Below are positions 14,701-57,925 of a stretch of DNA of 64,000 bases, piece by piece. The notes under the pieces were generated by a model that saw only the letters and a program-made list of their open reading frames with translations, made no database searches and was not told where the DNA came from. The stretch is from Antedon mediterranea. Taxonomy: Eukaryota; Animalia; Echinodermata. The first letter of the stretch is position 1. Each line of letters starts with the position of its first letter. The stretch spans positions 25,922,437 to 25,986,436 of the forward strand of contig NC_092672.1 of assembly GCF_964355755.1 (NCBI RefSeq), in the 5' to 3' direction. The translations under genes and the position numbers were made by a program.

Positions 14701-14963
14701 TATTATAAATAAAAATATAATATTTGATAATTGTTTTTAATTTTCTTGCAGGTCAATTATACTTTTTTAAAGACGGTCAGTACTATATGTACTCCACGCT
14801 TACTTACAGTGTAGATTTGGATGTATATCCACTGCCTTCTGGAGAAGCATGGTTCAGCTGCCGTCCCGGTTCATACCAGTATTATCCCAGTTCAGCACAC
14901 GTTCCGGCACTTAATATAGCTGTTCTGATTGTCGCCGTGCTGTCATGCGTTCTACACTTTTAA
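5768..14963 (+). CDS. MMP-A: matrix metalloproteinase (M10A) with hemopexin domain and GPI-type C-terminus (MMP17/MMP25-like architecture), about 510 aa, 8 exons
   Basis: Exons 5768-5857, 9323-9588, 11471-11748, 12046-12207, 12787-12902, 13507-13657, 13854-14111, 14752-14963; all GT-AG and phase-compatible (1533 nt). Signal peptide [21 protein letters not shown]; cysteine switch QRCGMKD; furin site RAKR; [11 protein letters not shown] zinc motif; Met-turn ALMAP; Pro-rich hinge; hemopexin DAA/FFKG repeats; ends [24 protein letters not shown]. Confidence 0.93.
5977..6145. mobile_element. Palindromic MITE flanked by TTAA (Kolobok/piggyBac-type target)
   Basis: GGTCTTTCACACCTGTTCCAGCACGGATCCGGTCCGGCG / CGCCGGACCGGAACCGTGCCGGAACAGGTGCGAAAGACC inverted repeats, TTAA on both sides. 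Confidence 0.8.
6360..8546. mobile_element. About 2.2-kb TIR-bounded DNA-transposon relic in MMP-A intron 1 (unclassified)
   Basis: Perfect 25-bp inverted repeat TTGAAATAAACAAGAGAAGATTCGA (6360-6384) and TCGAATCTTCTCTTGTTTATTTCAA (8522-8546); no recognisable transposase ORF. Confidence 0.6.
9000..9220. repeat. Short degenerate tandem repeat (TAGCTGCATAACGTGTTT core)
   Basis: Core or close variants at about 9005, 9146, 9160, 9181 and 9207. Confidence 0.6.
9996..10203. mobile_element. MITE (PIF/Harbinger-like GGCC ends) nested in the right TIR of an older element related to 33744-34237
   Basis: AGGCCAAGTCAGACAACGTCGTACGA / TCGTACGACGCTGTCTGAGTTGGCCT TIRs; flanks rejoin to ...TTCGTAA|GGTTGTGAAAC..., matching the 34200-34237 TIR. 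Confidence 0.75.
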
Positions 14964-17355: not shown

Positions 17356-20300
17356 ATGGCAAAGCTAATTGTATACCTGATTCAGGCTTTTATTTGCCTT
17401 ACAGTTATTTCTAGTACAAGCAGATTATTGTCTAAACGTGAAGAGGTAAGTAGCCTTCAGCACCTTATTTTATATAGGCTTAAGAAAACCCTTTTTTTTC
17501 AATCGAATTTTGAACAAAATATGAAAGACTGCAATAGAACAAAAAGTAGAGTAAAGTAGTATACAAATAATGAATGTTTATGAGTGCAATGGTACAAATA
17601 ATGGCACGAGGTGAATGATTAAAGGTTATATCAACGAGGCAAAGCCGAGTTGATATAACCTTTCATCATTCACCAAGTGCCATTATTTGTACCATTACAC
17701 GAATACAAAACATTCATTATTTGTTTTATATAACATCTAGACGTTTTTTTTTCGTACACAAAAATGTTTCAAAAAGTACTATTTAACGATCGTTGAATAG
17801 TGCGTACTATTGCACGCCATGTGACCCACATTCGTCCAATCAAATGACAGGAATTTATATAGGTGTTATATAATATATAATATATATACTATTTCCGAAT
17901 CAATTTCTACTGCCTACTAATTCCTTCATATAACCGCAAATATCCCGTTAGTATCTTTTACTTCTATGTTATTTAAATTGTATCTATTAAAGGATATAGG
18001 CCTGTAACCATGTAATTCTAAACAATTCGAACCTTTAGTCAATAAACTCCTCTCAAAGGAAAAGAAACAATGTTTCTTATTGGAGAATTTAACCTAGATA
18101 TTTAAAAATTTGAATCTGATAATAACATTAGAGATTTTGTCCATTGTCTTTTTAATAATTCTAATTAATGTCTCTTATTCATAGACCCACTAGAATAACA
18201 CCTGATTCTGCTACTCTCTTAGATAATATATTTAATGACATTGAATCATCCTTTAACTGCGGTATACTTTTTAACGATTCAACTGATCATCTCCCAATTT
18301 TTAATATTAGTTCTATAGCCAAATCGTATTGTCAAGAATAATTATAATAAATGCAAATATAGGAAAATTAATGAATTAATATTCATAATTTTTCGAAATG
18401 TTCTATCCAACTGTACATGGAATGATGTCATCATGCCACGGGTCCTAATAGTGCTTACAATACAACAGCTCAAATTAATTATAAACAAAAAAAAAACATG
18501 GATGACTGACTATATAAACATCAATACTTACAAACAAAAACTTTATTCTAAAAGTCTTCGTGTATTTTCGTTTTTGAACATGTCACCAACAAACTTCTTT
18601 CTTATTTTTCTTAACTCAGAAATCCACTCTTACAATACTAGGGCCTCACACGCCCTTCATCTTCTTTTGACTAAACTTACTTTAATTCAACACAATGTCC
18701 GATATAGTTGCAGTAATTATTTAATGCACTTCCTAATGATATTACATCTACCCCGATTTCAAGGCATTGTTTTTCTGTAAATTTAAAAAACTACCTTTTA
18801 TCAAATTATTAGTATATTTTAAATGACTAGATGGTCGTGTCCACAGATGGTTCTCGAATACACAGTAATTTCAGCGTCAAAAAACTGGCGATTTCAAATG
18901 TACGTACCACAGGACTATAAATACATTGTCGTTTTCAGAAACGAATAAATAGACACGATGATTAATGTAGTCAACTAAAATTAGCACACTGGGAATTAGG
19001 CCTACTTCGGAAGGAGAAACATGTCTTAAAATGAGTCCCAAAAACTAAAACTGTCCCTGTTATAGTCGATTGAAATAGTAAAGTACATGTAACGATACAC
19101 CACTACGACGTTTATATTTTTTATAATGACTAATTAATACAATAAACAGTAACCACATTCACAGTAAGAAAGTTTTGATTCAAATGGCGACCATAAATGG
19201 TTATTACGTACAGTATTTACAATATTGTCAAAGTATTGCAATGCTATATCTCAGTTTTAAGTTTATTCTCAAAGGGCCCATAAATTTACCTACTTGTGTT
19301 AAACCATGGAGGGCTCATACATTTACCTACAAACTTGGAGTCTGAGAGATTGGAATGTTCCATTCATTGCAAATCAATACATTTGTATAAACGTATATTA
19401 AATCTATCAAAATAGTATTTTTTAAGAAAACCGGCCTGTCTTCAACATTATGATACTGTACTCGAGCTGTTCAACCGGTTTTCAGCTATTAAAAACAATT
19501 ATCGTAGGAGGAGATAGGAAAATGCGAAGTATCCTCGTATTATTGTGTGCAGGTATTTTTCATGAGGACATCCATTAGACAGTGTATACCACGATCGGAA
19601 AACACCCCTATTTGGGGCAAATCGTTGAACCTAAATTCGTTTTAATTGTCAATAACTAATTATCTAAATAAATTTAATTAGTAAACAGGGTTACATCAGA
19701 TGGTTAAAATCAGAATTTTGCCCTTACGTAAATTTATATATAGATTATTATTGTCAGCCGTTTTTCGTCTCCTCTGTCCCATATGGCTACCAAATTCCAA
19801 TAATTACCATTTGTATCGTTAATTGTCTTTATGCTTCCTGTTTGTTTGTTTTGTGGGTGTGTGTTTGTTCTGGCTTTATGTTGTTTTTTCATTTCTTTAT
19901 TTTTTCTTTTATTGTACATGGCTTGCCCGCCACAAGTGTCCATTGGAGTATTCCAATTGATGTATAACTTCTAGGGCTCTTGCCTCTTCTTTTTTTTGTA
20001 TTAAAAAAAATGTTTATTTTGAAGCAAAAGAATATTAATTATTTAATTTCGATACTGTTTTTGTCAAATTTTTACGTTTTATTTGAAAGAAGAAATGAAT
20101 GTTACTTAAAATGAAATGAAATTTTCAATTTCATTCATTTAAAAAACTAATACAAAAAAATATCTCACATCCATTTAAGCTTCAGTATCAAGAATTCATA
20201 ATCAGAATGTGCTCAATAATTGCTTAAATTGTTCAATTGCAGCCAAATACTTTTGTCAGGTGTGGGTGTACGATCTAATGTCAGTAAACTGTTGTTAATA

Positions 20301-21869
20301 TCTTGTAAACGTACTGTATAGTTCAGTTATAGTTGTATTATATACATATATATGTACATGTGCATATCTAAAATCAATTGAAAAGATGTCAACAAAATGT
20401 CTTATTTTAATAATAATTTTAGGACTTTCTAGAACAATTTGGTTATTTGAGTCCAAAAAAAGATGGAGAAGAACGTTCAAACGAAGAGTTGCGTCAAGGC
20501 CTTCTTTCTTTTCAAAAATACTTTTATTTGGAGGAAACTGGTAATATGACAGACGAAACATCTGCTTTGATGGCGAAACCAAGATGTGGCTCTCCGGATA
20601 AAGAAATTAACAAGCTGTCAAGATATTTATCGACTGGTTATAAATGGACAGGCACCTCTTTGACCTACAAGTATGTTTTAATTATTATAAGTTATGCAGC
20701 CACTACATATCGTATGGCAAACTACAAACGATAGTTACCTTCAACTACATTAATTTCTTTTTCTTCAGATTACAATTAAGTCTTATAAAAAGTACAGTTC
20801 ACTTATGTAGGCCTTCTAAAATATCCCCCTTTCTACGAAAATCTCACTCTTCTATGAACATATTTGTTTTTTCTTGTGACAATCTCTTTCTTTTCGTGAA
20901 AATCTCATTTTTCTTTCATGCAAGTATCTTACTTTTAATTCGAACATACAATTCTTTTCTAAGCCTGTCAGTTAAGTTTTAAACAGTAACATTTGAGAAA
21001 TAAGAACAAAGAAGGTGATCCATCCGGATCGCCAACATTTTCGCTTGTCAAATAATTATGTTACTTATAAACACTTAGTGTATAAAATACTTAGTGGAGT
21101 TATTTTAAATGTTGTTACATTTTTTTCTTCAATGTTTTAAGTTATTTAAACTATTCATCCGACCTGACTGAAAATGAAACGAGACAAACCATTGAAAATG
21201 CTTTAAAAATATGGAGTGACGTCACACCTTTAGAATTCACTGAAGTTTCCGAAGATGGTGATATCAAAATTCTGTTTCAAGGTGGCGATCATGGAGATGA
21301 TTATCCATTTGATGGCCCTTTTGGTGTACTTGCGCATGCATTTTACCCCACAGGAAGTGTTTTAGCTGGAGATGCCCACTTTGATGAAGATGAAGATTTT
21401 ACAATTAATGGAGAAATAGGTAAAGTGGAATGAACTTTTAAACAGTGTTAAACAAACATGTTCTTCCAAAACATTTTTATTCAACACTTGTATGTCGTAC
21501 TGTCTGCATAATAACCAGTTTATCCTATTTTATTATGTGATTGATATTGTTTGTGTTTTTTTTATATTTATACGTGACAAGACACCTTTCGATGTAGAGT
21601 GCTTGACGAAATAAAAAATTGATTGTAAAAATAGAATTTAAAGAATGAACGCAATCTGGCAAGACATTTGGGACACAAAACAACTAACTCAAACACATTT
21701 TTTGTCGTAGGCATTGATTTGTTTCAAGTAGCTGCACATGAATTTGGACACAGTTTAGGTCTTGACCACTCTACAAATGAGACTGCATTAATGTATCCAT
21801 ATTACACTGGGTACATAGCTGACTTCGAACTATCACAAGATGACATTGACGGAATACAATCTATTTACG
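17356..21869 (+). CDS. MMP-B module (exons 1-4): signal peptide, propeptide and intact M10A catalytic domain, no hemopexin
   Basis: [20 protein letters not shown]; cysteine switch PRCGSPD; [20 protein letters not shown]; [11 protein letters not shown]; Met-turn ALMYP; ends GIQSIYG|gtatgt (phase 1). Confidence 0.93.
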
Positions 21870-24800
21870 GTATGTTTAGTTAGTAGGTATTCTATAAAGC
21901 TCTGTCCACATTAAAACTTTAAGGTACAAAAAAATGCAATGTACCCATATACAGTATGGACATGATGACGTCATATAACTACCATTTGGACACATCATAC
22001 TTTTGTTTGTCAAACTAGTTATTACTATTATAGACAGAGCTTTAGTATACAATAAGAATTTTGTTATAAGTGACATGGAAAGAATATTGTTCATGAGTTG
22101 ATATGAACGGTCCTTGGGCAATATTTTAATATTTTAATATGTTAATGCTTAAAAGCATTATATTCGAAAATGTTTACTAAATAGGCTTAATAATAGAATC
22201 TGCTAACCGTATTTGAATTGATGTTATTATTATTACATTTCTTTACACGAGGTAGCTAAAGAGTTATATCTGGTTTTCATTGGGGCACTGTATGTATAAC
22301 GATTGTTACAAACACAGTAGAGACTTAAATACGTCAAACAATTTCGATTTTTAAACGTTATCAGAAGAATCACTTCTCAAATCAACGAGCAATTGTTTCC
22401 ATATTATATTTGTTCCACTAACAAAAAAACTCGAGAGGTAACTCTCCTTTATCGCAAAAGGAACCCTAAGTTTCGAAACAATGGACTGTCTGGTTTTGAA
22501 AGTGGTGCGAAGCGAATAGGTTTATCGTGCTTATGAGTGTTAACTTGTTGATCAATTTGAAGAGAGTGCCATTTTTTTTATCGCCACTCTTTCAGAAAAC
22601 GGAAGACAAGATTACCCTTAGGAATTTATAGCGTATAATTATAACAAATATAGTATTGGCAATAACAACATTAAATTCCACATTGAACATTTTCTTTTTG
22701 GATCAAATGAGCTATAGCTTCCATACAATGAGCATAGATTACGATGTGTATTTTTGGTCGTCGCCTGGATATAGGGACAATCAAATTTGTGTTGTTGAGG
22801 GGAGCGTGAAACACATCCCAACAGTGATTAACATGACGTACTTCGGTCATCGGTCATCACAAATTGAAAGCTATTAATAATTTGTAGCAACCTACCTTAG
22901 AAATTATAAATGAGGAATGTATTAAACTGATTTCTTTTTTAATAATGAAAGTATTAGTGTATAATGAAAAATTGTCAATTTTATGTCATGTATATTTACT
23001 TTTGTAAATGCTAGAGCCCTATATCAAAGGCCTAATAATATTGTCATGTAAAGAAAATAAAAGAATCCATAAAAGCAGGTAAATCTCAAGAGTAAAATCC
23101 TGATTTAAAGAAAACTATTGTGATAAATGTACTATTAATAAAGTTAAGTTCGCATTGTTCACTTTTGGGCGTACCGTGAACAAGATTAAAGAGTGTAAAA
23201 GAAAGCTTCATGCTTTGTATAAGTTAAATAATAGTGCTATTATTTTTCTATCTAATGAGGCATTTATCCGTGCACGTTGTTGAATAGAAAGTGCGGTCAG
23301 CTTAGTTAATACTAATTCTTCCATGGTTTATAAAACTCTCGTTCACTATGCTTAATACGCCGTGCATTTGTATTACTAAATCCTGGATTATGGGTGAGCA
23401 GTTATTATTACGATTACGATTTACAAAACAAACAAGAAGGAATAAATCCTTTCAATAGCAGCCAGAAAATTAAAAGTATTGGACCATATAAGCCACTGTC
23501 ACTAAATATATAAGTAGGTACCTTCAACATTATTTCTACAAACCAGAAAACAAAGGTACTTTTGAGAAAAACCACAATAAATCAAATTATTAAGTTGAGA
23601 TTAATTTTATTGAGCCTAAAAATATAGAATATACAGAGTTCAATGTTTATGATTCACTTATTATTTAACTTGATCCGCCTCGTTTAATAGAACTTTCAAC
23701 ATTCAATTAAATATTCTCACCATTCAGCAACTCTATACATTCATTATTTATTTTATAACACATTTGTCATAATTATGAATTACTAGATGGTACGCGAGCG
23801 AAGCTAGCGTACCATCTAGGGCGTGTCCACATATGGTTCTCGATTAAAATTTCAACGTAAAAAACTGGCGATTTCAAATGTACGTACTGTAGGACTATAA
23901 TACATTGTCGTTTTCAGAAACGAATAAATAGACACGGTGATTTATGTAGTCAACTAAAATTAACACCCTGGAAATTAGGCCTACTTCCGAATAAGAAACT
24001 TGTCATAAAATGAGTTCAAAATTTTGATTTGGACTCATTTAAACAAACCACATTTGTGTTGTGTATGTGAGGGTTGAAGGATGGGGAAGAGGATGGATAC
24101 AAAGAAGCACAATTTTTAAATATTCTTTATCCATTCTTTAACGAAATATTGTTTCATGTTTTATAGGACTATAAATAATAATACCACTAAATACAGTAAA
24201 ACATTTGCGATTTAATACTTTGTTAAAACTGTCCCTGTTATAATCGATTGAAATAGTAAAGTATGTAACGATACACCACTACGACATTTATATTTTTTAT
24301 AATTATTAATTAATACAAACGTTGAGAAGCAACTGTCAGAAATAAAGTTTATTTGTATAATTATTATGTGTTTATATATCTAACAGTAGAGCCTATCCAC
24401 AATCACAGTAATAAATTTTATTTGTATATACGTTGACAATATTATATCTAACAGTACAGTAAGAATCTTTCGATTCAAATAGGTATTTACAGTATTGTCA
24501 AAGTATTGCAAGTTTATTCTCCAAGGGCTTATAAATTTACCTATGTGTTAAACAAAGGGCTCATAAATTTACCTACTTGTGTTAAACCAAACTTAAAGAC
24601 TGAGAGATTGAAATTCATCGCAAATCAATACATTTGTATAAACGTACATTAAATCTATCAAAATAGTACTTTAAAAAAAAATCGGCCTGTCTTCAACATT
24701 GTGATGCTGTACTCGAGCTGTTCAGCCGGTTTTTACCTATTAAAAACAATTATCGTAGGAGGAGATAGGAAAATGCGAAGCATCCTCGTATTATTGTGTG

Positions 24801-27800
24801 CGGGTACAGTATTTTTCAAAATGGACATCCATTAGACAGTGTATACCACGATCGGAAAACACCCATATTTGGGGCAAATCGTTGAACGTGAATTAGGTAT
24901 ATGTATCACTTTTATGTAGAACTAAAATAGAACGGCACGTGATACGTAATTAACCAATTAAATAATTAAAAAAATATACGCATGTGTGTTATAAAAGTGA
25001 ATGTTTTTAAATCTTCTTTCAATAATTGATTGTTTAATTCAAGGCGATTACCAACGAAAACAATTGACTTGACCTAGCTTTTTAAGGCAATGACCAATGA
25101 CAAACAATGACCTAGCTTGTTCCTAGTTTTCTGTCGTCGCAAATCAAAATCTTCCTAATAATAATGTATTGGACAAAATAGAATAAAATGTTACAATTCA
25201 TATTGATACATACATACGGACATTACAATTGATATATGGTGCATTAAAGGCCCAATTTTAAATATCACTTGTTTGGTTAACACTTAATGGAAAAAATACA
25301 AATATGAGTTTAAACGATTAATTTGATAATACCATAGATATTAAATCTAGTAGCTTACATGTTTTTTTTTGGCAGCCTTAAATGTATTTTAGCTAATGTT
25401 ACTATACCGATGATTCGACAGGAGAGAGTTGTTAATCCAATAGTTTACAATTTTTTTTACAGGGGCTGTAACAACAGCAAAGGAAATGACAACACCAAAA
25501 GATGTTACAACCGCAGAAGAAATTACAACAATAGAAACAACACCAGAGGAAGAAGAAATGACAACAACAGAAGATGCAACAACACCAAAGCAAATGACAA
25601 CAGCAGGAGACGTGACAACAGCAGATGATTTGACAACGGACGATACAATCACAACAGTAGAAGATGAAACAACAGAAATTACAACATCTCAAGTATTGAC
25701 AACAGCAATAGAAATAACAATAAATGATGAGTTTACAACCGCTGGAGTAGTGACAACAGCAATAGAAGTAATAACGGAAGAAGACATTAAAACGTCAAGA
25801 GTTGTAACAACAGCAGAAGAAATAACAACAGCAGCAGTAACAACACCTGCAGAATATACAACAAGTGGAGTAGTGACAACACCTGCAGAATTTACAACAG
25901 CAGGAGTAGTAACAACACCTGCAGAATTTACAACAGGTGGAGTAGTGACAACACCTGCAGAATTTACAACAGCTGGAGTAGTTACCACACCTGCAGAATT
26001 TACAACAGCTGGAGTAGTGACAACACCTGAAGAATTTACAACGGGTAGAGTAGTGGTGACAACAGCAATAGAAGTAACAACGGAAAAAGAAATAACAACA
26101 TCACACGTTTTAACAACAGCAGAAGAGATGACAACAGCTGGTTTAACAACACCTGCAGAATTTACTACAGGTGGTGTAGTTACAACATCAATAGAAGTAA
26201 CAACGCCAGAAGAAATTACAACATCACAAGTTTTAACAGCAGAAGAGATAACGACAGCTGTAGTAACAACACCAGCAGCATTTACAACTGCTGGAGTAGT
26301 GACAACACCTGCAGAATTTACAACAGCAGGAGTAGTAACAACACCTGCAGAATTTACAACAGCAGGAGTAGTGACAACATCAATAGAAGTAACAACGCCA
26401 GAAGAAATTACAACATCACAAGTTTTAACAGCAGAAGAGATGACGACAGCTGTAGTAACAACACCAGCAGGATTTACAACAGCTGGAGTAGTGACAACAC
26501 CTGCAGAATTTACAACAGCAGGAGTAGTAACAACACCTGCAGAATTTACAACAGCTGGAGTAGTAACAACATCAATAGAAGTAACAACGGAAGAAGAAAC
26601 TACAACATCACATGTTGTAACCACTGCAGAAGTAGCAACACCAGCAGCATTTACAACAGCTGGAGTAGTAACAACACCTCAAGTATTTACAACAGGTGGA
26701 TTACTTACAACAGCAATAGAAGTAACAACGGAAGAAGAGATAACAACAGCAGGAGTAACAACACCTTCAGAATTTACAACAGCTGGAGTAGGGACAACAT
26801 CAATAGAAGTAACAACGGAAGAAGACATTACAACATCACAGGATGTGACAACAGCAGAAGCGATGACAACATCAGGAGTAACAACGCCAATAGAATTTAC
26901 AACAGCAGGAATAGTGACAACACCTGCACAATTTACAACAGGTGGAGTAGTGACAACATCAATAGAAGTAACAACGGAAGAAGAAATTACAACATCACAG
27001 GTTGTAACAACTGCAGAAGAGATAACAACAGCTGGTTTAACAACACCTGTAGAATTTACAACAGCAGGAGTAGTAGCAACACCTGCAGAATTTACAACAG
27101 CTGGAGTAGTAACAACACCTGAAGAATTTACAACAGGTGGAGTAGTAACAACACCTGAAAAATTTACAACAGGTGGAGTAGTAACAACACCTGAAGAATT
27201 TACAACAGGTGGAGTAGTAACAACACCTCAAAAATTTACAACAGGTGGATTACTTACAACAGCAATAGAAGTAACAACGGAAGAAGAGATAACAACAGCA
27301 GGAGTAGTGACAACACCTGCAGAATTTACAACAGCTGGAGTAGTTACAGCACCTGAAGAATTTACAACAGGTGGAGTAGTAACAACACCTCAAGAATTTA
27401 CAACAGGTGGATTACTTACAACAGCAATAGAAGTAACAACGGAAGAAGAGATAACAACAGCAGGAGCAGTGACAACACCTGCAGAATTGACAACAGCTGG
27501 AGTAGTGACAACATCAATAGAAGTAACAACGGGAGAAGAAATTACAACATCACAGGTTGTAACAACTGCAGAAGAGATAACAGCAGCTGGAGTAACAACA
27601 CCAGTAGCATTTACAACAGCTGGAGTAGCAACACCAGTAGCATTTACAACAGCTGGAGTAGTGACAACAGCAATAGAAGTAACAACGGAAGAAGAAATTA
27701 CAACATCACAGGTGGTAACAACTGCAGATGTAACAACACCTGCAGAATTTACAACAGGTGGAGTACTTACAACATCAATAGAAGTAACAACGGAAAAAGA

Positions 27801-39800: not shown

Positions 39801-42800
39801 ACATGTACTAACTATCGGCCGCCATTTTTCGGTATGTATACAGTACTATATTATTAGATAACATTAACCGTTATAAAACACGGCAACAATGTTAATGTAT
39901 GTCTTTAGAATATTGGACGAAAAGAAGGCTACCTGGCAGTCTCGATCGGGGCAAATGACCGAATTATTATACCTTCATGAATACAGTATTTATAGTTCAT
40001 TAGTATAGGAATAGATAGATAGATATATAATTGAAACATATTTGTATAAACATGAAATAAAACGGCCCACATTGTTACAACAAAATAAACAAACCTCTTA
40101 TAATGTGCATGCACTGTTAGGCTGTTGTCTGCGTCTACTTTGAAAAAGAATCAAATAATTAAAATGAACTAACCACAAAGTGTAAAATTTTAGGATGGAT
40201 GTTTGGAGATCCCCACATGCGTACGTTGGATGAGTTTGAGTATACTTTCAATGGACTTGGTGAGTTTATTTTAGCGACGATCGATGACGATTTCTTTGTG
40301 TTGCAAGGCAGAATGGAGATTCCAAAAAGCGATGATGAATCTGTACAGGCAACAGCATTTACCGCTTTTGCAGCTCAGGAAAATGGCACTTCAAAGGTAA
40401 CTCACAAGTGTTTTAACTTATTCAGCTTTCATTAAAACTGGTTTTGATCAAAACGTTCTGTTGTCAACGATCAATATAGGTTGATCATACATAAAATGAT
40501 ATAGGGTAGGGCCAATATTGATTCTACTATTATCTTTCTATTTGGTTACATTTTCCCAAAAATTCCAAATCATTCAGCACTTGAATCTGTTGCTTCTTGT
40601 CCCGAAGTTTATTTATTTTCTGATTCCTACTAAGTTTAAACGTGGTATTCATTATATGTTTCTCGTTAGTCAGTTAGTATATATGTTGGTGGTGGGTTCT
40701 CAATTTTGGATATTTGATATTGAATATATGTTTTTGTCAAAAATCGTCTGTAAATGGGAACTTTGCAAAAATGTTTCATAATTATCAATGCTTAGTTTTA
40801 ATCTGTTCTTGCATCATCTTTTATTGAGTATAAAACATACAAATAAGTTGTGTCTTCCTATAGTCTTATGTCATTATGTCCTCCTACACTATTCTCTCTT
40901 TTAAACTTCTTATTATATTTTTTTATTATATTAAAGGTTCAAATGACACTGAACGATAATGCAACAGATTTTGACATACTGATTAACGGAAGTTTTTATT
41001 TGAATAAAACCATACTGAATTCTGGTAAAGTACTGTTTGAATTATTTTCATTGTTGCCTATAAGTTTACCTTAAGACTTAATCCACAATCCAACCTGGAT
41101 CAGCATTGTTGAAAATTGATATTTTAGGATATTTTAGGTTGTTTTTGTGGAAGATGCTATTGTTTATTTCCTGGTGAAGTTTGTTCTTATTGTGTTTGTA
41201 TATGGATGTACAGTACTATCTGAAATAAAGGAAATGAATACATGAAGCAACTTTGTTCTTTGTCAAACAAACGCTTTAAAGTTACGCGTTGCAGTCTTTT
41301 TTATTTGGGTGTTTAATCAAAGAACATATAACACAAGAATCTCCTGTTCGTCCGAAGCGCGTAACAATTTCGAAAGGCATTGTGGGATAGAATAAAGCTA
41401 TGGGTGGAGCCATTGTGAGCCATGGAGTAGGGCGCCCGCATCAAATTAGAAAGTCAAAATCATAGAGGGGATCTGCTAATGTTCTAGGGGGAATAGAGTA
41501 ATTGACTGAGGAGTAGGGCGCCCGCATCAAATTAGAAAGTCAAAATCATAGAGGGGTTCTGCTAATACTCTAGGCGGGGGGGGGGGGGGGGGGGTAGAGT
41601 AATTGACTTCCTAGTTTGGAGGGGGCGCTGCTCCATGCTGTGAAATGGCGTTGCCCAGTTTGACCTTTTAACCCTGTACTTCCGATACTGTGTTTTGAAT
41701 GCAAATTGAAGAACAGGAGATTCTTGTGTTATAATTTCTTTGGTTTTAATGTAGACACACTGTTACATACTAGAAATATTAAATTAATTTAAAAAAAGGT
41801 TATTTTTAATAATAGGTGCATATATGCCACCAAACGATCCGGAAATAATCATAAGCCTCCCAAACACTAATTCTACTGGATACCGTGTTCAGGTGACCTG
41901 GAGTTCTGGACTTTCTATATCTGTTGGTCTAACATCATCTGTCTTGGATGTAGTGCTCTCAGTACCTGAGGAATATAAGGGGAAAACCAAAGGATTATAT
42001 GGTAGGTAGAATTTACACACTGTTTTTGATATATTTTTATTGTTTGTTTTCTTACTTTACATGAAGTAAACCTATTTGATGTTTTTTTTGCCCGAACGTC
42101 TGTGGTAAACACTAATAATTCAAGAGATTAATTATGTTATTACTGTTAAACAGTTACAAGATATTTTCCGAATATAACTGAACATGACTATCTAAATATT
42201 TATTTTGAACTAAACAATGCCGATGGAATTCGAAACCAGGGCTTCAGGTTCACAACCTGAAATCATACCACCATTTTCATACATAACTGTTCATCCATAA
42301 AGTCATGCACATTTGTGTTTATGCCTAATACGTTCGAAGAAAAATAATATAGCCAGAAAACATTCATAGTTACGTCAATTGCAGATATTATTTCTATAAC
42401 AGTTTAAGCAAAAAAACAGGTATAAATATTTTTTCTTTAAGGTGTTTGGAACGATGATATAAGTGATGACCTTACGTTTCCAAATGGATCTATACTGGAA
42501 ATACCTAACAACAGTTCGTTGGCAGAAATTTCTGCTTATGAGTTTGGTCTCACATGTAAGTAGCAAAATAATAGAGTTCTCGTATTGAAATTATAATTAA
42601 TTTCTAGAAATTGTATCAATAACATGACAATGTTTTTAATTTGTGTACGTTGCGTCTACGTCACTGTGTTGCGTCTTTTTTCGAAACGCTTAAAGATGTT
42701 TTGTCCTGTCCTCCTGACAATTTGTTTTGTTTAATATGCAATTTTAATGTTAAAATATTACAAAATATACTTACCTTAAAAAATTGCAATTTAAATCAAA

Positions 42801-45800
42801 GGAATAGTCAAATTGGCTGCCAACAAATTGGTTTTTAATTGAACCTATTCTGTCATTTTATAAGTGAAAACTTTTTTTTAACTTGTTTTCTAAGTAATAA
42901 TTGATTACTATATTAAAGATGAGAAATTAACTATTATTCAGTCTTATTTTATTAAGCTACATTTTATATGCCTTTAGGTGAAAATACATCTTTAAATTAC
43001 CAGTACACAAAAGTGTATACCAAATTATTTAAACAATTCTATTTTTCAAAAAAACTGCCGCATGATATAAATAGAACGGTTATAGGCCTAAGTATAATTC
43101 TTATCTTTGTCCTGTTGTATTTTCAGGGAGAACAACAAACGAATCAACGTTGTTTGAATACACTGCTGATGAATCATGGGAAACGATCAATAACCGAACA
43201 TTCAAGCCACTCTTTCTTGATGAGCTGATAGAAAAATACCAAAACACGACAATATATACAGAAGCGTTGGCAGCGTGTGGTGATAATAGGGAGTGTCTAT
43301 TTGATTCGCTAGTAACACGTGACCTTTCGTTTGGACTTAATACATTAGAAACCAGCGACAAAAACAACGAGGATGCTGGAGAATTAGGTAAATTAAAATT
43401 AAACAACCTTTATCAATAGAAGAGTGAACATCTTCATTGCTTTGCCGTGTAACAACTCGTTACCAATGTATTGGTAGACCTGTATTGATGATTTAGTATA
43501 CAGATAGTAGCAGGGTTGATACACTAACAATGTGATGATTCTTTACCCCGTAATCAGAAGTGATATATATTTATATATATATATATATATATATAACCAT
43601 ATCAGGCAAAGAACATTAATTCTAAACCGCCCGGTGATATACTGAAATTTAATTAATTAATTTGAAACGATAAAGATGAGGAAATCTGTGAGAATGAGAA
43701 AAAGTCGCTCCAACCGAGACTCGAACTCGGACCGCCTGCTTGATATGCAGATGTCCTAACCATTAGACCACTGGGGCTTTTATGGTATTGTTCAAACTCG
43801 ATTGGATAGCGACTCTTTAACATTCTCGGAGTGGTACGGCGGAACAGCACTAGTCCTCAGTTGTACGCACGCGCACCAGAGATCAAATTGATACGCCCTC
43901 ATCTTTCAATATTTTTATTCACGAGGCGGGATCTCCGAAGATCGACACCATATATATATTTCAATATTAATTGAGGCCACAGCAAACTTTCTACCAAACA
44001 TAGCCGAATTTATAGCAATTACCCCATTCAGTTCTGTAGTTAAGTTCAGATTGGTAATCATAAGTGAAAAGTTATACCTGAAAATCTCAGGAAATAAGTC
44101 TTTATTTCGACATTAATTCACAGCAAACTTTCCACCAAACATAACAGAAGTTGTAGCAATTAACCCATCCAGCGCTGTAGTTAACTCAAACCAGCTTCAT
44201 GCTACAGTAGGTACATCACATATCATTCGAATCAATGCATTTGATCCAAACGGAGATGATATCCAATATGGATTACAGGATACAGTTCCAGGAGCTGGTG
44301 TCGATCAAGGTAATGAAAATATAATTCTAAATAAAAGTCTAATTTAAACTGTTCTTTATAATCATAATAGGCCTACGCTAGGTACCAAAAGTTCTTCATT
44401 AACCTCAAGTAACGCGCTTAGTTGACGTGGAATGTTAGTGAGACACGCAATGACCGCATGGTACCGTCAAGGCGTTTATCGAAAATTTACCTCAGGTGTG
44501 ATGGGTTTGCATTGAGATTATGTTTGATATGTTCTTTTGATTTAGATGGAATTTTTACATGGATACCTGAGAACACAAATGCCGTCACTCTCACTTTCAT
44601 TGTTACTGACAGCAAAGGTTCTGTAGCCGCCTTTCCAATCGAAGTTATCCTGTGTGAATGTCTTAATGATGGTGTTTGTGATTTTGAAAGGCTTGTTGAT
44701 GGTTCGGACATTCTCAATAATCAATATGCCGTAAGTTCGTTGCTACTTTGGCCGTATTTTGAATTAATATCAGCAAAAAGACAAATATTTTGGCACATAT
44801 ATCATTTCAATACTTCAAAAATCACAAATACATAATATTATACCTGTATATAATATTTTCGAAACAAAAAATGGAAATGCCGACAATTCATAACAAGAAA
44901 GATAATAATTATAATACTGACTTTGTTAGAGAAGTCTAGTTTGTTGTCTGTGTGCAAAAAATGAGGTTTGTGTGCAATAACCATTACTGGTCGAAACTCT
45001 ATACATTTTAGAAGTTCGGGTTCATGGTAGAAGAGGGTTATTAACCACAATCAAGTACCACTACTTACCAAATACTTATTTTAAATGTTGAAGCATTCGT
45101 TGTCTTTTCGAAAAATTAATGTAATGTAGGCCAAACAATATTACATTTAAATCATATATACAGGTTGCTGAGTGTGACTGTCTACCGGCTTGGTCTGGTA
45201 CGAATTGCAGTGAAGACTTTGATGCTTGCTCAGGTGAACCATGTTACCCTGGTGTCGTCTGCACCGACGAAGAAGCACCTTCAGCAAATGGCACATGTGG
45301 TGACTGCCCGGATGGTTTGATTGGAACTGGTTTTAAGTGTTTTGGTAACTTAAATGAATATTAAATGTCTTCAAAGTACATGCATTCCAAAAAAGTCTGA
45401 ATTATGAGGCTTGAGCTATGTCTACAGTCAAACTGTATGTGACAAAATGTGTGTCAATTAGTTTGATAGTGTAGACAGAGCTACAGTATTTGATCTCAAG
45501 AAGACATGCAAGGCATGTATAGAGATGGAGTAGTTGAAGCTGAGGTTTTGTTCAACGTCTGTCATATGTTAGGATCGTTTCCATGTCATTTGTGTTGCGT
45601 CATAGTTGAAACTTGACTGTAGTCGTTACACAAATTTCAAAGATATAAACTAAGCTGGAGACACGTAGCAGCACCTAAGCTCAAACCAGCTCTATATTAT
45701 ACTTGTATGTAATATGTGGACATTATTACTGTACAATAACTACACAATATTGGATTATAAATGAAATTGTTACTCCTTTAAACATAAATATATTAATTTG

Positions 45801-48800
45801 TTTTTATTTAAGATGACAACGAATGCCTATCGGGCGCTGCAAATTGTCAACAAGATTGCACCAACACGTTGTTTTCATATAACTGTAGCTGTTACGAAGG
45901 CTTTGAATTGGACGCTGATGACAGCTCCTGTAATGGTAAGAAAAAATAAAAAGTAGTTAAGATTTGATAGAGCATGGTAAGTTTACTAAAACCATTTTCT
46001 ACATCATAAGAAATAAGAGATATAGTACTGGTGATGAATAGTGGCGATACATTGGGATAGCTAATATCGTAGTGAGTTTGTTGAAAAGGATTATATATGT
46101 ATTATAACTTTATGGGTATGTATTGTATGCTAGTAACATAATAAAATATACACTTGTTTACGATTTGACTTAAACATAACATCTTTTAACTACTGGCTCG
46201 TTGTCCTAAATCACCGGACCATAAATGAGTTTCAGTCGATATGTAGATTTTCATAACCGGTACATTCGTGTCGTATTTAACAGTTGCTAAATTAACAGTG
46301 TTTGGTTTACAGATATAAATGAATGTACTCTGATGCTAGACAACTGTAGCCCCAACGCTACGTGTCTAAATACAAACGGATCGTACGTATGTTCTTGCGT
46401 CACTGGGTTTAATGGGGATGGAGTAACGTGCACTGGTAAGTACTATTGCATAAGCAATATCGATTTTAATCAGATAATTGTGTCTCCGTTAAATATTGTG
46501 GCGTGGGATCATAAACTTTACAGGTGTTATCGAAAAGTAATTTTGCATGGATGAAGAGGAGAAAAAATGTACGTGATGGATACGATTGGACGAAACCAGA
46601 GGCTTTGGAATTCGATCGCACTGGACTGGTCAAATAAACAGAGTCGTCGGCTAACGTGACGAAGAAAAGTCCAATCCGAACACTGGTTGTAAATCACTAA
46701 GGGTTAAATTACCAAGTCCAATGGTTACTTTTATGTGAATCATGGATACATCTTTGTAAAACTATATTAAAAAATGCGTAAAAATATCGAAGTGGTAACA
46801 ATGGACAAAGTATCCAAAGAAAGTTGATAAAGTTATCGTATTCAAAAGTTTTAAAGATAGTCCAGTGCAAACAAGACTTAATGCTAATATGTATTTTACT
46901 TTAATTTCAGACACCAATGAATGTGGTTTAATTGACTACCCATGTGATACAAATGCAGTCTGCACCAACACATTTGGGTCATTTACGTGTCAGTGTATCG
47001 ATGGCTTTAACGGCAACGGCACGTTCTGTGAAGGTAAAACGCAATGCCATAGGCCTAATACTATGCTTAGGCTACATTAGTATTATTCGCCAAATCAAGC
47101 AAAAATATTTGCTTTGCCAATATAGATCAGATATCAAACTGCTGCTATTTTACACAAATTAGATTAGTAATTATGTAATACTACCGATTGACAAAATGAT
47201 GCTAGATAACTAGTTTCGACAGGAACCAGTCCTCCAAACAGTGGAAAACTGGGATTTTACAATTAAAGCAACATGTGCTAGGGGTAGAAAAAGTTTTGTG
47301 TGGATTTTATCATGATTTGAATGCAAATTAAGTGATCCTTGCGTGGCAATGGAAGACCAACTTATTTATTTCTATAATTAAACATATTATATATTAGATA
47401 TAAATGAATGCTCCACTTTGCTTAATAACTGCGATGAAAATGCTGATTGTGAAAACGCTGGAGGAACTTTTACGTGCACTTGCTTGCCTGGGTGGACCGG
47501 AAATGGAACCACTTGTGTGGACGTGAACGAATGCCAGACTGGAAGCCCATGTGGTGTACGTTCGATATGTACCAACACTATTGGAGGCTATAATTGTACA
47601 TGTCCAAGTGGCTACACAGGAGATGGCATAAACTGTATAGGTTAGTTGTTAATTTGTAAAATAAGCTTACTCATTACCCACAATACCTATAAAAGACGAA
47701 TTCGACGTCCACATGTTTCTTTAATAGTATAGAAAACACTATATCTAGATGCTAGTTACTAAATAACAAGTTATTGCATAACAAGTTACAAAATGCTAAA
47801 TAAACAACCAAGGGTATATCTTCCACATAAAAGCAAATAAACCACGTTCGTTTTTTTAAATAAAACATCTGGTTTTTAGTTGAATTAATTAATTATTTGT
47901 TTGACTTATATCATATTCAATCAATTTATTTCTAATTTACAGATATTAATGAGTGCATAAATGGAACCCATAACTGCACTGGAAATTCAGAGTGTCTAAA
48001 TAGTAATGGTGGTTTTACGTGTCCCTGTATAGAAGGTTACATTCTTGAGGAAGAAATGTGTGTAGGTACGTAAGTAAGATAATGGAGGCATATATAAAAC
48101 AGCAAATCAGTTTTTTGTGGTGTTAAAGTAAGAGAACCAAAATAGAGAACTTGCCAGCACCTGAAATTAGATACAAAAATAAATTGCAAAACAACTGAAA
48201 ATCATTCCTAATATATTAATGTGTGAGGAGATTTTAAAATAAACACTAATGTTTTTGAAGAGTTTTTTTTTTCAATAATCTATAATTACTGTGGATTGTT
48301 CTTTTCGTAGAAATTGAAGCAACTACAAGGATGACGACAGTAGCAGAATCGCCAATTACTAATGCAGTAACAACTGAAAAACGTTCAACAGCTGGCGCAG
48401 TGACATCAACAGAAAACGAGGCACCCATCACTACTCCAGTATCTACGACTGAAAAACCGGTAACTGTCGCAGTTCCATCATCGACGACAAAACAGATAAC
48501 CACTGCCGCCGGTCCATCAACAACAGAACAGACAACCACCGCCGCCGTTCCATCAACAACAGAACAGACAACCACCGCCGCTATTCCATCAACACCGCAA
48601 CAGGTAACCACCGCCGCCGGTCCATCAACACCGCAACAGGCAACTACTGCCGCCGGTCCATCAACAACAAAACAGACAACCAGTGCCGCAGTTCCATCAA
48701 CGGAAAAACAGGCTACAACTGTCACAACGGCAAGAACAGAAACAGAGGCGATCACTACAACAGTAGGAGGTACACTCATAATGTTTGGAAATATTTTCTT

Positions 48801-51598
48801 TTAGTTAATGTATTAAATTGAAGATTGTTGACAGATACATAATTAAGACCCAAGACTTAAGACAACTTAACTTACAGGTTTCGATTTAGCTTCATATATT
48901 TTGTTTGTTGTTATGATTTCGTTATGGAATCTTTAAAAAACAATGTTAATGTTTCATTATTTGGCAGAAACAATACGTTTGCATGATTGTATTTATGTAT
49001 TTCAGGTGATACATTTAATGTTCAGATAACAATAACTGACTTTGGAAGTGTGGAAGCGGTATTCACTGATTCACTGAGAGACACGACAAGTACCTTAAGT
49101 GTGACGTATAGAAATACTATCTGTACATCGGTATGTAAACTTTACTATGATAAATATTGAGTGTTTATACTATAATAGTATACACTAGAATGTATAACCT
49201 AATTAACATTAATTATGTACTTTACAGATCACAAGCATCACAAGTCAAAGTGGAGAAATCAACAGTCCCCCGTCGACATGTACCGTGGAGCGGTATTCTA
49301 GTGGCAGTATCATTGCGGACATGCTGCTAACCTTTCCAGACTCTTTTACTACTGCTCAAACTCTACAAACAGAACTAACTAGTGCTATTGACACAAACGA
49401 TGGTGTTCTACCGGGTACAAATTTTGCAGTTAATGTAGATGATCTATCTGTTGAACGTAAGTTTCAAGATCAGTTCAGAAATTGACGAGTTAATATCTAG
49501 ATCTTTACTAATTTACTCATGGTTATTATCATTATTATAATTATAACATACACATACATAAAATATAATTTCAATAATAGATGAAAAAGTTTATTTAGTA
49601 CAACATAAGTACAATGTGACATTCCAAAGTACAGTAAACATGTTGTCTGTTCCTTTTTTCTGTGATTATATTATTAACTGTTTTATGTGCAACTAAATCA
49701 TAAATAAACGTGTGATTTTCTCTTCCCTGTGTCTGCTTTGAATACAATTTCATTTCATAATGAACCAACCATTTCCGGGCTGTCCTGAAATATAATGCAA
49801 TGCGTCTTATTTTGTTCACAGTTCAGCTAACTTGCGATGGATTTTGCAAAAATAACGGAGCCTGTGATGACAGCGGCCAATCACTTGTATGCAAATGCGA
49901 AAATGGTTACGATGGAGAAACGTGTCAAAATGAAACCGATAGTAAGTTGATGACGTTGAAACTAGGGAAAGATTGATAGACATATAATCAGTAGGGTAAA
50001 AATAACGGTGTGCAATTAGAGATATCTCTCTATTATTTTAGTATTAAAATAGCAATTGAAACCAACGTGGAACTGATTACATTCTTCTAGTTTAGTGAGT
50101 GTTCATGGCTATGTCAACAACTGACATGGTTCATTTAGCAGGCTGATTGCATGTCAGTATTCCACAGATGATGCGTGAACCCACAGCTAGTTGCTTAGAA
50201 AAAACCAGAGATTAATGTGCGCATGCGTATCAGCCCAATACACATTTATATTAATTAATGGAAAATGTGTGTGGATTTTGCTAGCGACTGATTTTTTAAA
50301 TTTGGAAATGAGTTTGATAACATATCCCCAATATATTTTTGTTTTAATTTCAGACTATTTAGCTGTATACATAATAATTGGTCTTGCTACCTTAATTGGA
50401 CTTGTTGTGGTTTTTGCACTTGTGGTGTTGTTCATTATTATCACAAAACGCCGTCAAATTAAAGACATCGATTATTTTAGGTCGGGAATGTCACCTATTT
50501 ACGATAACGATTCCATTTCATCGACTTCTGAACAGCTTCATCTTTACAAGAACAGACTGGCTTATACAGCACGTGTAAGTAGGCTTAGGCCTATTGACTT
50601 ACAGTCAAAGTATGATGACGCTAATTACTCTTTTCCATGCATGATTATAAGAGAGACCTAATGTATAATATTTAATCAGGCATGAAGGAAAATAACTACC
50701 GCCATCACAAAAGATTTAAGAATCTTTGATTAACCCAAATAAAATCTGGTCATATCTTCACGTTTGAAGTAGGCAGAGACTGCTTTAAATCCATTCAGGG
50801 CTGTTTGATGGTTCAATAAAATTGTATATTAAACATCGATATAATAATCCAAAATATATTTTTCTTAAATATAGGACTATACTAATTACAGAAGAGGCGA
50901 CGACGAGGTGATGCGACCGTATGTTGTTACTGGTAATGAACTGGTGAGTTACTAGATAACATACGAATGTAATATAGATTGGGCCTAACAAACTAGCAAA
51001 CATACTGTTGCAGTAGCACTGGGAATAGTACTAAACTATTCTGAGCATACATAAGCAATAATACAATTAGACACTTTCACACTCCATGCCTCCACATAAA
51101 AGGTAAAAGCATTATTTAATTGTTCATTAGTGTTCTAAATATTCAATTCAATTCAATTTCTTTATTTCTGCAAATGCCATCAAGGGCTAATATCATACAA
51201 ACATAATTATACATACATTTAAAATTTAAACACATACACATTTTAGTCATTACTACTGTAGTAGTTATTGTTTTTAATTATTGTAATTATTGTTATAATG
51301 ATTATTGTATAGTTATTATAATAATTAATAAAAGTGTAATAAATTATATGACAACTATATCAGTGTTACCATGTAACAATTCTAAAACGCTAGAGAAACA
51401 TTCTCAATGATTCACTCAGAGGAGATTGAGAATAATCTTCAAGGTCCTAAGTTTAGATTTTCTAATCTCATTACTATATGTGCACCTCCTCCTTCCAAAT
51501 ACCTTTGTAGACGGCAATTGCTTAACGATTTTGTTTTTGTAATTTTGTTTTAGGAATATGACAGGCGCCGATGGTTAGCGGAAGAAGATCTTTTTTAA
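17356..51598 (+). CDS. Predicted MMP-transmembrane mucin chimera, 37 exons, about 4,536 aa: SP-propeptide-M10A catalytic-PTS mucin-LDLa-2xSushi-2xcbEGF-NIDO-AMOP-VWD-Ig/cadherin-like-EGF array-PTS-SEA-EGF-TM-cytoplasmic tail
   Basis: Exons 17356-17445, 20423-20670, 21142-21419, 21711-21869, 25463-32245, 32578-33237, 34659-34778, 35134-35313, 35518-35691, 35952-36074, 36236-36355, 37123-37268, 37713-37880, 38049-38210, 38725-39214, 39413-39595, 39712-39831, 40194-40396, 40937-41024, 41816-42001, 42442-42555, 43127-43387, 44124-44309, 44546-44730, 45164-45344, 45813-45935, 46313-46435, 46911-47033, 47398-47640, 47943-48065, 48311-48769, 49006-49130, 49228-49456, 49822-49941, 50354-50574, 50875-50943, 51554-51598. 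All GT-AG and phase-consistent, total 13,611 nt. The 21869-25463 junction is inferred, not transcript-proven. Confidence 0.75.
17563..17873. mobile_element. Crypton-like non-autonomous element with about 160-bp hairpin
   Basis: 17563-17724 is a long inverted repeat centred on CGAGGCAAAGCCGAG; ends CGTCCAATCAAATGACAGGAATTTATATAGGTGTTATATAA; inverted fragment at about 61845-61920. Family assignment from memory. Confidence 0.55.
17900..18810 (+). mobile_element. Decayed CR1/L2-clade LINE fragments (APE endonuclease and 3' end)
   Basis: Frameshifted peptides [39 protein letters not shown] and [10 protein letters not shown], typical of CR1/L2 ORF2. Confidence 0.7.
18826..19630 (+). repeat. Interspersed repeat, copy 1 (copy 2 at 23782-24887)
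   Basis: Collinear from ACTAGATGGT..GTGTCCACA to CCACGATCGGAAAACACCC..GGGGCAAATCGTTGAAC. Confidence 0.85.
21896..22043. mobile_element. MITE with AAGCTCTGTCTACAC-type TIRs (also 61093-61251 and truncated 45413-45482)
   Basis: AAAGCTCTGTCCACA...TAGACAGAGCTTT, with internal ATGGACATGATGA..CTACCAT..GGCACATCA shared among copies. Confidence 0.75.
23782..24887 (+). repeat. Interspersed repeat, copy 2, with terminal hairpin, in the MMP-B/mucin intron
   Basis: Begins CTAGATGGTACGC-GAGCGAAGCTA-GCGTACCATCTAG (hairpin); homologous to 18826-19630. Confidence 0.85.
25463..32245 (+). CDS. Giant 6,783-bp mucin (Thr/Glu-rich PTS) exon, phase 1-1
   Basis: Acceptor ttttttttacag|GG GCT GTA, donor ACC G|gtatgt; 2,261 uninterrupted codons of TT-x4 repeats ([24 protein letters not shown]). 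Confidence 0.92.
32578..33237 (+). CDS. Second mucin exon ([12 protein letters not shown] 12-aa repeats)
   Basis: ataacag|GA ATT..GCA G|gtttga, phase 1-1, 220 codons. Confidence 0.88.
33744..34237. mobile_element. About 490-bp MITE with about 50-bp TIRs (inverted copy at 62461-62946, decayed copy at about 9700-10224)
   Basis: AGGGAGTTTTCGCAACCTTACGAATACGATAACGAAAACGGATACGTCAC / GTGACGTATCCGTTTTCGTTATCGTATTCGTAAGGTTGCGAAACCTCCCT. Confidence 0.88.
34659..36355 (+). CDS. LDLa, Sushi x2 and calcium-binding EGF x2 exons
   Basis: [25 protein letters not shown]; [17 protein letters not shown]; [15 protein letters not shown]; [21 protein letters not shown]; [21 protein letters not shown]. All phase 1-1. 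Confidence 0.88.
37123..43387 (+). CDS. NIDO-AMOP-VWD cassette (MUC4/SUSD2/Mesh-like) with GDPH site
   Basis: [43 protein letters not shown] (NIDO); CTDW..TCPCS..CCY..CCEKS..YRPP (AMOP); [31 protein letters not shown] (VWD). Confidence 0.9.
37330..37650. repeat. Degenerate intronic minisatellite (CAGTGTGTTAACTCAGTATT / AAGTGTGAG cores)
   Basis: Repeated CAGTGTGTTAACTCAGTATT and GTAAGGCTTATGAGTCCTCAAT blocks. Confidence 0.65.
41313..41748. mobile_element. TIR element containing an 86-bp tandem duplication and a G-run
   Basis: TATAACACAAGAATCTCCTGTTC / GAACAGGAGATTCTTGTGTTATA; GGAGTAGGGCGCCCGCATC at 41424 and 41510; poly-G at about 41576-41594. Confidence 0.7.
43596..43950 (-). mobile_element. 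(TA)n-flanked element carrying a tRNA-like cloverleaf (43706-43777); truncated relative at about 4020-4135
   Basis: Reverse complement GCCCCAG-TGGTCTAATGGTTAGGAC-A-TCTGC ATATCAA GCAGG-CGGT-CCGAG TTCGAGT CTCGG-TTGGAGC; flank TTCTAAACCGCCCG..GAAACGATAAAGATGAG shared with 4027-4085. Confidence 0.65.
43983..44053 (+). pseudogene. Decayed duplicate of the 5' part of exon 44124-44309 (pseudo-exon)
   Basis: cacag|CAAACTTTCTACCAAACATAGCCGAATTTATAGCAATT vs cacag|CAAACTTTCCACCAAACATAACAGAAGTTGTAGCAATT; read-through hits TAA at about 44114. Confidence 0.7.
44124..48065 (+). CDS. Ig/cadherin-like domain followed by an EGF / cbEGF array
   Basis: [37 protein letters not shown]; then [34 protein letters not shown] and six D(I/T/D/V)NEC cbEGF repeats. 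Confidence 0.88.
48311..51598 (+). CDS. Membrane-proximal PTS, SEA domain, EGF, transmembrane helix and 80-aa cytoplasmic tail
   Basis: TTAAGPSTT repeats; [28 protein letters not shown] (SEA); [23 protein letters not shown]; [33 protein letters not shown]; ends WLAEEDLF* with AATAAA at 51610. Confidence 0.85.
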
Positions 51599-57735: not shown

Positions 57736-57925
57736 GAATGATGATCATACTGATGATGTTCATACTGATGATGATCATACTGATGATGTTCATACTGATG
57801 ATGTTCATACTGATGATGATCAAATAGGATCGAAACGTCGAATCATGGCTTCCCTCTCGTTATTTTTAGTCAGTTTTATACTTATGGTAATGTTTACAAA
57901 TACTATTACCACGATCATAAAATAG
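57736..57925 (+). CDS. Possible alternative terminal exon: (HTDD[V/D])n His/Asp repeat plus hydrophobic anchor
   Basis: atcag|G AAT GAT GAT CAT ACT..; NDDHTDDVHTDDDHTDDVHTDDVHTDDDQIGSKRRIMASLSLFLVSFILMVMFTNTITTIIK*. No strong phase-2 donor found upstream. Confidence 0.35.

Follow-up and report, generated by a model that had tools for sequence, protein, structure and literature searches.

A candidate gene fusion of a matrix metalloproteinase and a MUC4-like membrane mucin in Antedon mediterranea

Locus and gene model

The window analyzed here was a stretch of 64,000 nucleotides (nt) from Antedon mediterranea (NC_092672.1:25,922,437-25,986,436, forward strand, assembly GCF_964355755.1); RefSeq proteins identical to parts of the gene model described below are named Antedon mediterranea. 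In order along the + strand, the window holds a hemopexin-type matrix metalloproteinase (MMP-A), a second metalloproteinase (MMP-B), the body of a transmembrane (TM) mucin and a third metalloproteinase (MMP-C), with a fourth (MMP-D) lying beyond the window and joined to MMP-C in RefSeq. On balance, MMP-B and the mucin body were read as one young chimeric gene, predicted to encode a fused, catalytically complete protein of 4,536 residues. Feature positions are collected in Table 1.

The exons of MMP-B and the mucin were joined by coordinate, giving a model of 37 exons and 13,611 nt in which every intron was bounded by GT..AG and most junctions were in phase 1. The initial annotation of this DNA had described 37 exons and one open reading frame of about 4,536 residues, and the same length was obtained when the frame was rebuilt by script: 4,536 residues, with a single stop, at the end. 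At the TM exon, donor 50574 gave an open frame and 50578 did not. The genomic anatomy and the frame compatibility of the model were confirmed. The predicted domain order was signal peptide, MMP propeptide and catalytic domain, Thr-rich stalk, LDLa, Sushi, EGF, NIDO, AMOP-like, VWD with a GDPH motif, C8, EGF domains, SEA-like region and TM helix; of these, LDLa, Sushi, C8 and the SEA-like region were absent from the initial listing, as was a second Thr-rich segment. Input to the Pfam scans was 16 single exons out of the 37, together with two RefSeq proteins.

Table 1. Features of the MMP-B/mucin model and of the neighboring MMP genes, in window positions.
Feature	Positions	Strand	Basis
MMP-B exon 1: signal peptide, phase-0 donor	17356..17445	+	Hydrophobic N-terminus, signal-exon scan, start of XP_071944791.1
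MMP-B exon 2: propeptide, cysteine switch PRCGSPD	20423..20670	+	PG_binding_1
MMP-B exon 3: catalytic domain, structural Zn/Ca region	21142..21419	+	Peptidase_M10; spliced to exon 4 in run X1
MMP-B exon 4: zinc motif, Met-turn, strong phase-1 donor	21711..21869	+	Sequence, donor scoring
Predicted intron 4 (unproven junction), 3,593 nt	21870..25462	+	High-copy repeat at ~23770-24900, also in intron 1
Stalk exon: 6,783 nt, Thr-rich, phase-1 acceptor	25463..32245	+	18-nt basic repeat, 759/795-nt higher-order copies
Second stalk exon	32578..33237	+	36-nt repeat
Five exons: LDLa, two Sushi-like, two EGF-like	34659..36355	+	Pfam LDLa and first Sushi; EGF by cysteine pattern; colinear with P0092
Six exons: NIDO, AMOP-like	37123..39831	+	Pfam, structure neighbors
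Five exons: VWD with GDPH (residue 3406), C8-3_MUC4	40194..43387	+	Pfam, motif
Eight exons: linker and Ca-binding EGF array	44124..48065	+	EGF_CA scan of exon 47398-47640 alone; elsewhere cysteine pattern and BLASTP to relatives
Four exons: second Thr-rich segment, SEA-like region (GSII), EGF	48311..49941	+	EGF above Pfam cut-off
Three exons: TM helix, Tyr-containing cytoplasmic tail	50354..51598	+	Hydropathy; AATAAA at 51610
MMP-C: sister paralogue of MMP-B, hemopexin-less, short Thr-rich hinge exon	53388..56937	+	Identity, tree
MMP-A: conventional hemopexin MMP, hydrophobic C-terminus	5768..14963	+	Cluster context; last junction not closed by script

The metalloproteinase half

MMP-B matched Peptidase_M10 in Pfam at 189.7 bits (cut-off 24) and, in its propeptide, PG_binding_1 at 23.9 bits (cut-off 23); its best PDB matches were MMP-1, MMP-3, MMP-10 and MMP-7. 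The signal peptide, PRCGSPD switch, zinc motif and Met-turn named in the initial annotation were borne out by Pfam, motif and hydropathy analysis: HExxHxxGxxH, PRCGSPD and the Met-turn (ALMYP) were all intact, and the N-terminus was hydrophobic (KD19 peak 2.02, a heuristic for a signal peptide). MMP-B has the domain and motifs of an M10A matrixin and is predicted to be proteolytic. The furin motif R-x-K/R-R did not occur anywhere in the 4,536-residue model.

The donor of MMP-B exon 4 (21869) was in phase 1, as were the donors of the equivalent exons of MMP-A (12207) and MMP-C (56112). In MMP-A and MMP-C, and likewise in the RefSeq model of MMP-D and in both Anneissia genes, this donor leads to a hinge exon. 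For MMP-B, intron 4 gave no tblastn match at E <=10 to the MMP-C tail or to three crinoid hinge/hemopexin regions, in agreement with the earlier statement that no such exon follows exon 4. Hemopexin gave no tblastn match in the mucin either, the matches landing on MMP-A. Translation read through past donor 21869 halts after five residues at a TAG (21882-21884). MMP-B and MMP-C were 68% identical, with a dN of 0.19 and a dS of 0.63 (pairwise values, not branch-specific), and formed sisters in a tree with Anneissia XP_033108513 (P0090) outside them, at a support of 93/91, which is below the level starred in that tree. MMP-C and Anneissia XP_033108513/514 end in a short hinge exon and have no hemopexin.

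The mucin half

The stalk, put at about 2,480 residues initially, was counted at 2,481 residues, of which 819 were Thr and none Cys, with 330 acidic versus 24 basic residues. At 36% Ser+Thr and with tandem repeats, it constitutes a proline-, threonine- and serine-rich (PTS) tandem-repeat region, and O-glycosylation is predicted. At 28547-31300 in the stalk exon, an offset scan located higher-order repeats with lengths of 795 and 759 nt; these were 98.6-99.2% identical, which indicates recent expansion, so that stalk length may vary among alleles or assemblies.

Downstream of the stalk, LDLa and the first Sushi domain scored above their Pfam cut-offs and the second Sushi exon had no Pfam match. 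The initial annotation had assigned the order NIDO-AMOP-VWD(GDPH)-EGF-TM, of which NIDO (68.7 bits, cut-off 25), VWD (27.8 bits, cut-off 22.9), GDPH, EGF and TM were upheld and AMOP fell short in Pfam (15.3 bits, cut-off 25); an Atlas structure row to the SUSD2 AMOP domain did reach the naming bar, and the Atlas structure neighbors of the NIDO/AMOP part were SUSD2 and Mesh. C8-3_MUC4 scored 54.1 bits against a cut-off of 25. The GDPH motif, at residue 3406 in VWD, is a putative cleavage site. The SEA-like region carried a GSII motif and matched 4 of 154 relatives weakly by phmmer, with no Pfam SEA match when its two exons were scanned singly. A single TM helix (KD19 peak 3.28 at residue 4437), EGF domains and a cytoplasmic tail were present as in MUC4-like mucins. 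RefSeq XP_071944792.1 was found to be a 492-residue fragment of this mucin (37760-42006), with an out-of-frame start and an end produced by intron read-through at an internal exon, and the mucin locus is mis-annotated in RefSeq whichever reading of the junction holds.

Evidence for the junction 21869^25463

Splice sites were scored with leave-one-out position weight matrices. Among the model's own sites, donor 21869 ranked 5/36 and acceptor 25463 ranked 3/36, and the initial description of the one as a strong phase-1 donor and of the other as an in-frame phase-1 acceptor was sound. Within 21870-25462, no rival site scored as high (0/203 other GT, 0/177 other AG).

A type I membrane protein that is intact and rich in disulfide modules requires a signal peptide. 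None had been noticed in 21870-25462, and a scan for ATG, hydrophobic core and donor also returned no signal-peptide exon in that interval while recovering the true MMP signal exons used as a control (3/3). Outside intron 4, the same scan returned 15 more low-grade candidates, of which two, both with weak donors, fell in MMP-B intron 1. An in-frame stop (25441-25443) lies just upstream of the acceptor and, in the mucin exon itself, the first Met in frame is not followed by a hydrophobic stretch; a transcript started in the intron would therefore be leaderless. MMP-B exon 1 is the only strong signal-peptide source near the mucin.

In sequencing run X1, a 171-nt contig was spliced at 21419^21711 (GT..AG, one other letter), and MMP-B is transcribed, since this contig joins exon 3 to exon 4. 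The RefSeq stop after YG in MMP-B is uninformative and weighs little, because 32 internal mucin donors also read through to a stop within 1-39 codons and because XP_071944792.1 ends in the same manner at a clearly internal exon. The anatomy is well beyond chance in splice-site strength and in the missing leader; from it we infer the fusion itself.

One further stretch in intron 4, a hydrophobic ATG-to-phase-1-donor candidate at 24704-24803 (the best of seven), was rejected because it lies in a high-copy repeat that recurs at 19450 and because its hydrophobic part contains charged residues. Pieces of a high-copy repeat, 82-94% identical, were found in both MMP-B intron 1 (18833-19637) and intron 4 (23819-24894), with a depth of thousands-fold in the runs examined.

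Relatives of the mucin

The closest relative of the mucin was Anneissia XP_033114121.1 (P0092), 47% identical over 1,419 residues and colinear from LDLa to the EGF array, and a quick tree placed the two as sisters with a support of 100. The ten top mucin matches looked up comprised seven crinoid, two hemichordate and one shark cluster. Of 149 NIDO/AMOP/VWD relatives, 43, the closest one included, had a PTS window preceding the NIDO core and no MMP. Only 37 of the 149 had a hydrophobic N-terminus, so that many of the relatives' models probably lack their 5' end.

Crinoids have an expanded LDLa-Sushi-EGF-NIDO-AMOP-VWD-EGF family (P0092-P0109), represented by six Anneissia loci among the ten matches looked up and by one cluster member; most of these models have no signal peptide. 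A distant NIDO/AMOP/VWD match of 1,068 residues (P0237) carries a trypsin-type GDSGGP at residue 152, and a serine protease may thus join a related ectodomain.

Evidence against the junction, and alternatives

Several observations weigh against the fusion. The initial annotation had proposed spliced reads across 21869^25463 as a check: exons 3 and 4 were found spliced in X1, but no contig spanned the junction, the spliced contig stopping near 21747. Neither exon 2 nor 21750-21869 was covered in X1, and the gap of this run at the junction is no evidence either way. An unspliced X1 contig of 214 nt ran across the acceptor (25370-25589) at a depth of 7.35, versus 4.7 for the spliced contig, and may stem from DNA, from pre-mRNA or from transcription initiated within the intron; at 22036-23751, where the intron sequence is unique, that run had almost no coverage. 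Over 25370-25589, the X1 allele differed from the window by two substitutions, one of them at 25453 in the acceptor pyrimidine tract, and by a deletion of 6 nt at 25521 that leaves the frame intact. In RefSeq, MMP-B is a separate protein of 262 residues ended by the read-through (XP_071944791.1) and stands apart from the mucin fragment, in visibly fragmentary models. An ATTAAA at 21910, 26 nt past the read-through stop and one of 21 A[AT]TAAA hexamers in intron 4, could end a stand-alone MMP-B. Runs X2, X3 and X5, which behave as DNA runs, cover 20300-23812 and ~24850-25770, and none of their short-read contigs crosses the intervening repeat (23812-24858).

The comparative searches belong on the same side. 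When the 149 NIDO/AMOP/VWD relatives were scanned for the zinc motif and with a local MMP profile, none had an MMP domain. Among 151 candidates for long MMP proteins (2126-5000 residues), six had an MMP domain and none of the six had NIDO or VWD, weak evidence in that a fish MMP was used as the query; these six look like concatenations of neighboring genes and illustrate that fusions of this kind are readily produced on paper. The search for M10 with NIDO, AMOP or VWD in one protein, also proposed initially, was thus negative in both sets (0/149 and 0/6). In Anneissia, the closest mucin lies on a 174-kb scaffold and the MMP pair on a different, 808-kb scaffold; among the 88 matches listed, no Anneissia MMP fell on the 174-kb scaffold, a weak result from searches limited to proteins of <=2000 residues, too short to reveal a fused protein.

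The leading alternative, which we consider unlikely, is that two genes are present, MMP-B being a matrilysin-like secreted protein of 262 residues that ends in intron 4 and the mucin having its own missed first exon, which could be short, split, weakly hydrophobic or far upstream (e.g., in MMP-B intron 1). Two genes would fit the RefSeq model XP_071944791.1, the ATTAAA at 21910 and the unspliced X1 contig over the acceptor; hemopexin-less matrilysin-type MMPs have been described in echinoderms (PMC8467561, section 2.1.2), relatives with intact N-termini (e.g., P0097) run from signal peptide to PTS, and hydrophobic ATG stretches occur at 19831 and 20010 with weak donors scoring 2.9. Such a missed exon was, however, not among the products of the signal-exon scan in intron 4 (0 candidates), the MMP-B donor has been kept at rank 5/36 with no other strong partner acceptor, and the RefSeq models here are fragmentary, as seen at the start and end of XP_071944792.1 and in XP_071944794.1, which is MMP-C plus MMP-D.

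Less probable again is a single transcription unit with alternative processing, in which intronic polyadenylation yields a soluble MMP-B and the mucin takes exon 1 or exons 1-3, giving a membrane form without active protease. The routes would run from exon 1 (phase 0) to the in-frame AG at 25444 or through exons 1-3 (phase 1, no zinc ligands). The position of 25444 in frame for a phase-0 donor, the phase-1 end of exon 3 and the ATTAAA after the read-through stop are compatible with this scheme, but 25444 is a weak acceptor outside the six best in the interval, and in the sole spliced contig exon 4 is not skipped but joined to exon 3. It is very improbable that the mucin is a leaderless relic orphaned only recently or has a non-coding first exon (e.g., at donor 23078, a strong donor with no signal peptide before it), or that a misjoin at the intron-4 repeat brought the halves together, with a frame match by chance. 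A phase match would occur by chance about 1 in 3 times, most junctions of the gene are phase 1, and no short-read contig bridges 23812-24858, but the 4,278-residue mucin frame is intact over 33 exons, the 6-nt deletion of the X1 allele at 25521 preserves the frame, and the mucin lies between MMP paralogues on a contig of 39 Mb.

Proposed origin and working of the fused protein

The fusion of MMP-B with the mucin, as first proposed, was retained as the best reading with fair confidence, with a junction spanned by no contig; the history proposed with it was not. The hinge of the MMP was said to have become the stalk and its hemopexin to have been replaced by the mucin. An expanded-hinge origin of the stalk was rejected in view of the PTS region in MMP-free relatives. 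Most likely the stalk represents a PTS region native to the mucin, because such relatives (43/149, the closest included) have PTS sequence upstream of NIDO, and hemopexin was likely lost before MMP-B arose, because MMP-C and the Anneissia orthologue are also hemopexin-less.

The reading we favor is that of a lineage-specific chimera formed by phase-1 exon shuffling, probably displaying an MMP zymogen on a stalk of about half a micrometer over a MUC4-like anchor, sheddable at GDPH and acting at the outer glycocalyx. After the Antedon/Anneissia split, a hemopexin-less MMP would have been duplicated into B and C; copy B would have landed before the mucin body, and MMP exons 1-4 would have replaced the mucin's signal-peptide exon via a phase-1 intron. 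The placement of B and C as sisters with Anneissia outside would explain the absence of fused relatives. The combination is new, both halves belong to known families, and it is apparently confined to one lineage.

In the fused gene, the four MMP exons would splice onto the 33-exon mucin body, the MMP signal peptide would route the chain to secretion and the TM helix would anchor it. Mucin residues extend by 0.2-0.25 nm each, and with this value the stalk, presumably O-glycosylated, would reach ~0.5-0.6 micrometer. Autocleavage at GDPH, and perhaps in the SEA-like region, may leave a non-covalently tethered, sheddable alpha subunit that carries the protease; MUC4 is described as putatively cleaved at GDPH (PMC8660890). 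As there is no furin site, activation of the cysteine-switch zymogen would take place extracellularly. Along the outer margin of the glycocalyx, the active protease might then cut back the matrix, mucus or attached microbes, these substrates being a guess. The mucin would thereby take the localizing role that hemopexin with a TM or glycosylphosphatidylinositol (GPI) anchor has in membrane-type MMPs (MT-MMPs).

If the junction is real, it represents a new way to localize an MMP, with a whole membrane mucin in place of hemopexin and TM/GPI, and a datable new gene made by exon shuffling in an MMP cluster, for which the unfused sister MMP-C, 1.8 kb downstream, is a natural control. A role for MMPs in the mutable collagenous tissue of echinoderms has been proposed (PMC10381214), so that a tethered, sheddable protease would be a concrete candidate for feather-star tissue. 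If it is not real, an ordinary MMP lies beside an ordinary MUC4-like mucin with its first exon elsewhere.

Flanking genes and repeats

In MMP-A, hemopexin exons are accompanied by a furin site (RAKR) and by a hydrophobic C-terminus that looks like a GPI signal, a type of C-terminus described for some echinoderm MMPs (PMC8467561). The Thr-rich tail of MMP-C ends in Cys-x-Cys and basic residues, as do those of Anneissia XP_033108513/514. RefSeq XP_071944794.1 joins MMP-C to the next MMP by skipping the MMP-C stop and is probably an annotation artifact. Downstream of MMP-C are a short 15-nt repeat (57735-57820) and a tandem satellite of ~21 nt (ATAAAGGGCGGTCCAATCAGT-like, 57980-58730); open frames in these repeats (57735-58730) are probably due to chance.

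Comparison with known systems

The initial annotation knew of no characterized protein with this architecture. In the literature searched, with most subscription papers outside reach, no MMP-MUC4-like fusion was found described. The MUC4-like invertebrate mucins (NIDO-AMOP-VWD proteins such as SUSD2, Mesh and the Actinia mucin4-like proteins) have in common with the Antedon model a PTS region, NIDO, AMOP-like domain, VWD with GDPH, C8-3_MUC4, EGF domains, TM helix and tail; they differ from it at the N-terminus, where the model is predicted to carry a complete MMP zymogen. The Actinia proteins are reported to be extended by further modules at the N-terminus (CUB, ZP, FN3) or by a SEA domain at the C-terminus (PMC9080433), and a protease domain is not mentioned in the available parts of PMC4948705 and PMC9080433. 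The nearest relative, XP_033114121.1, also has an acidic low-complexity stalk upstream, but this stalk is Ser/Glu-rich rather than Thr-rich, and the protein has HYR domains, no MMP and no signal peptide, its 5' end being probably missing.

The MMP half most resembles the echinoderm matrilysin-type MMPs (MMP-C and Anneissia XP_033108513/514), which like MMP-B have a signal peptide, cysteine switch and catalytic domain and lack hemopexin; they are 61-68% identical to it, and MMP-C has the same intron positions and phases. These proteins end after a hinge exon of ~30-45 residues, whereas MMP-B lacks this exon and is predicted to run into the mucin. A survey of echinoderm MMPs (PMC8467561, section 2.1) gives classes without a mucin-fused type. 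A protease on an O-glycosylated linker is known from MT-MMPs and MMP-9, and MT-MMPs are also membrane-anchored; PMC6627178 gives 14 O-glycans for the OG domain of MMP-9 and an O-glycosylated linker for MMP14. The fused protein would operate in a comparable manner. Compared with these, the Antedon model has no hemopexin or furin site, its linker is 2,481 residues long with 819 Thr, and, if 21869^25463 is spliced, a whole MUC4-like ectodomain would serve as its anchor.

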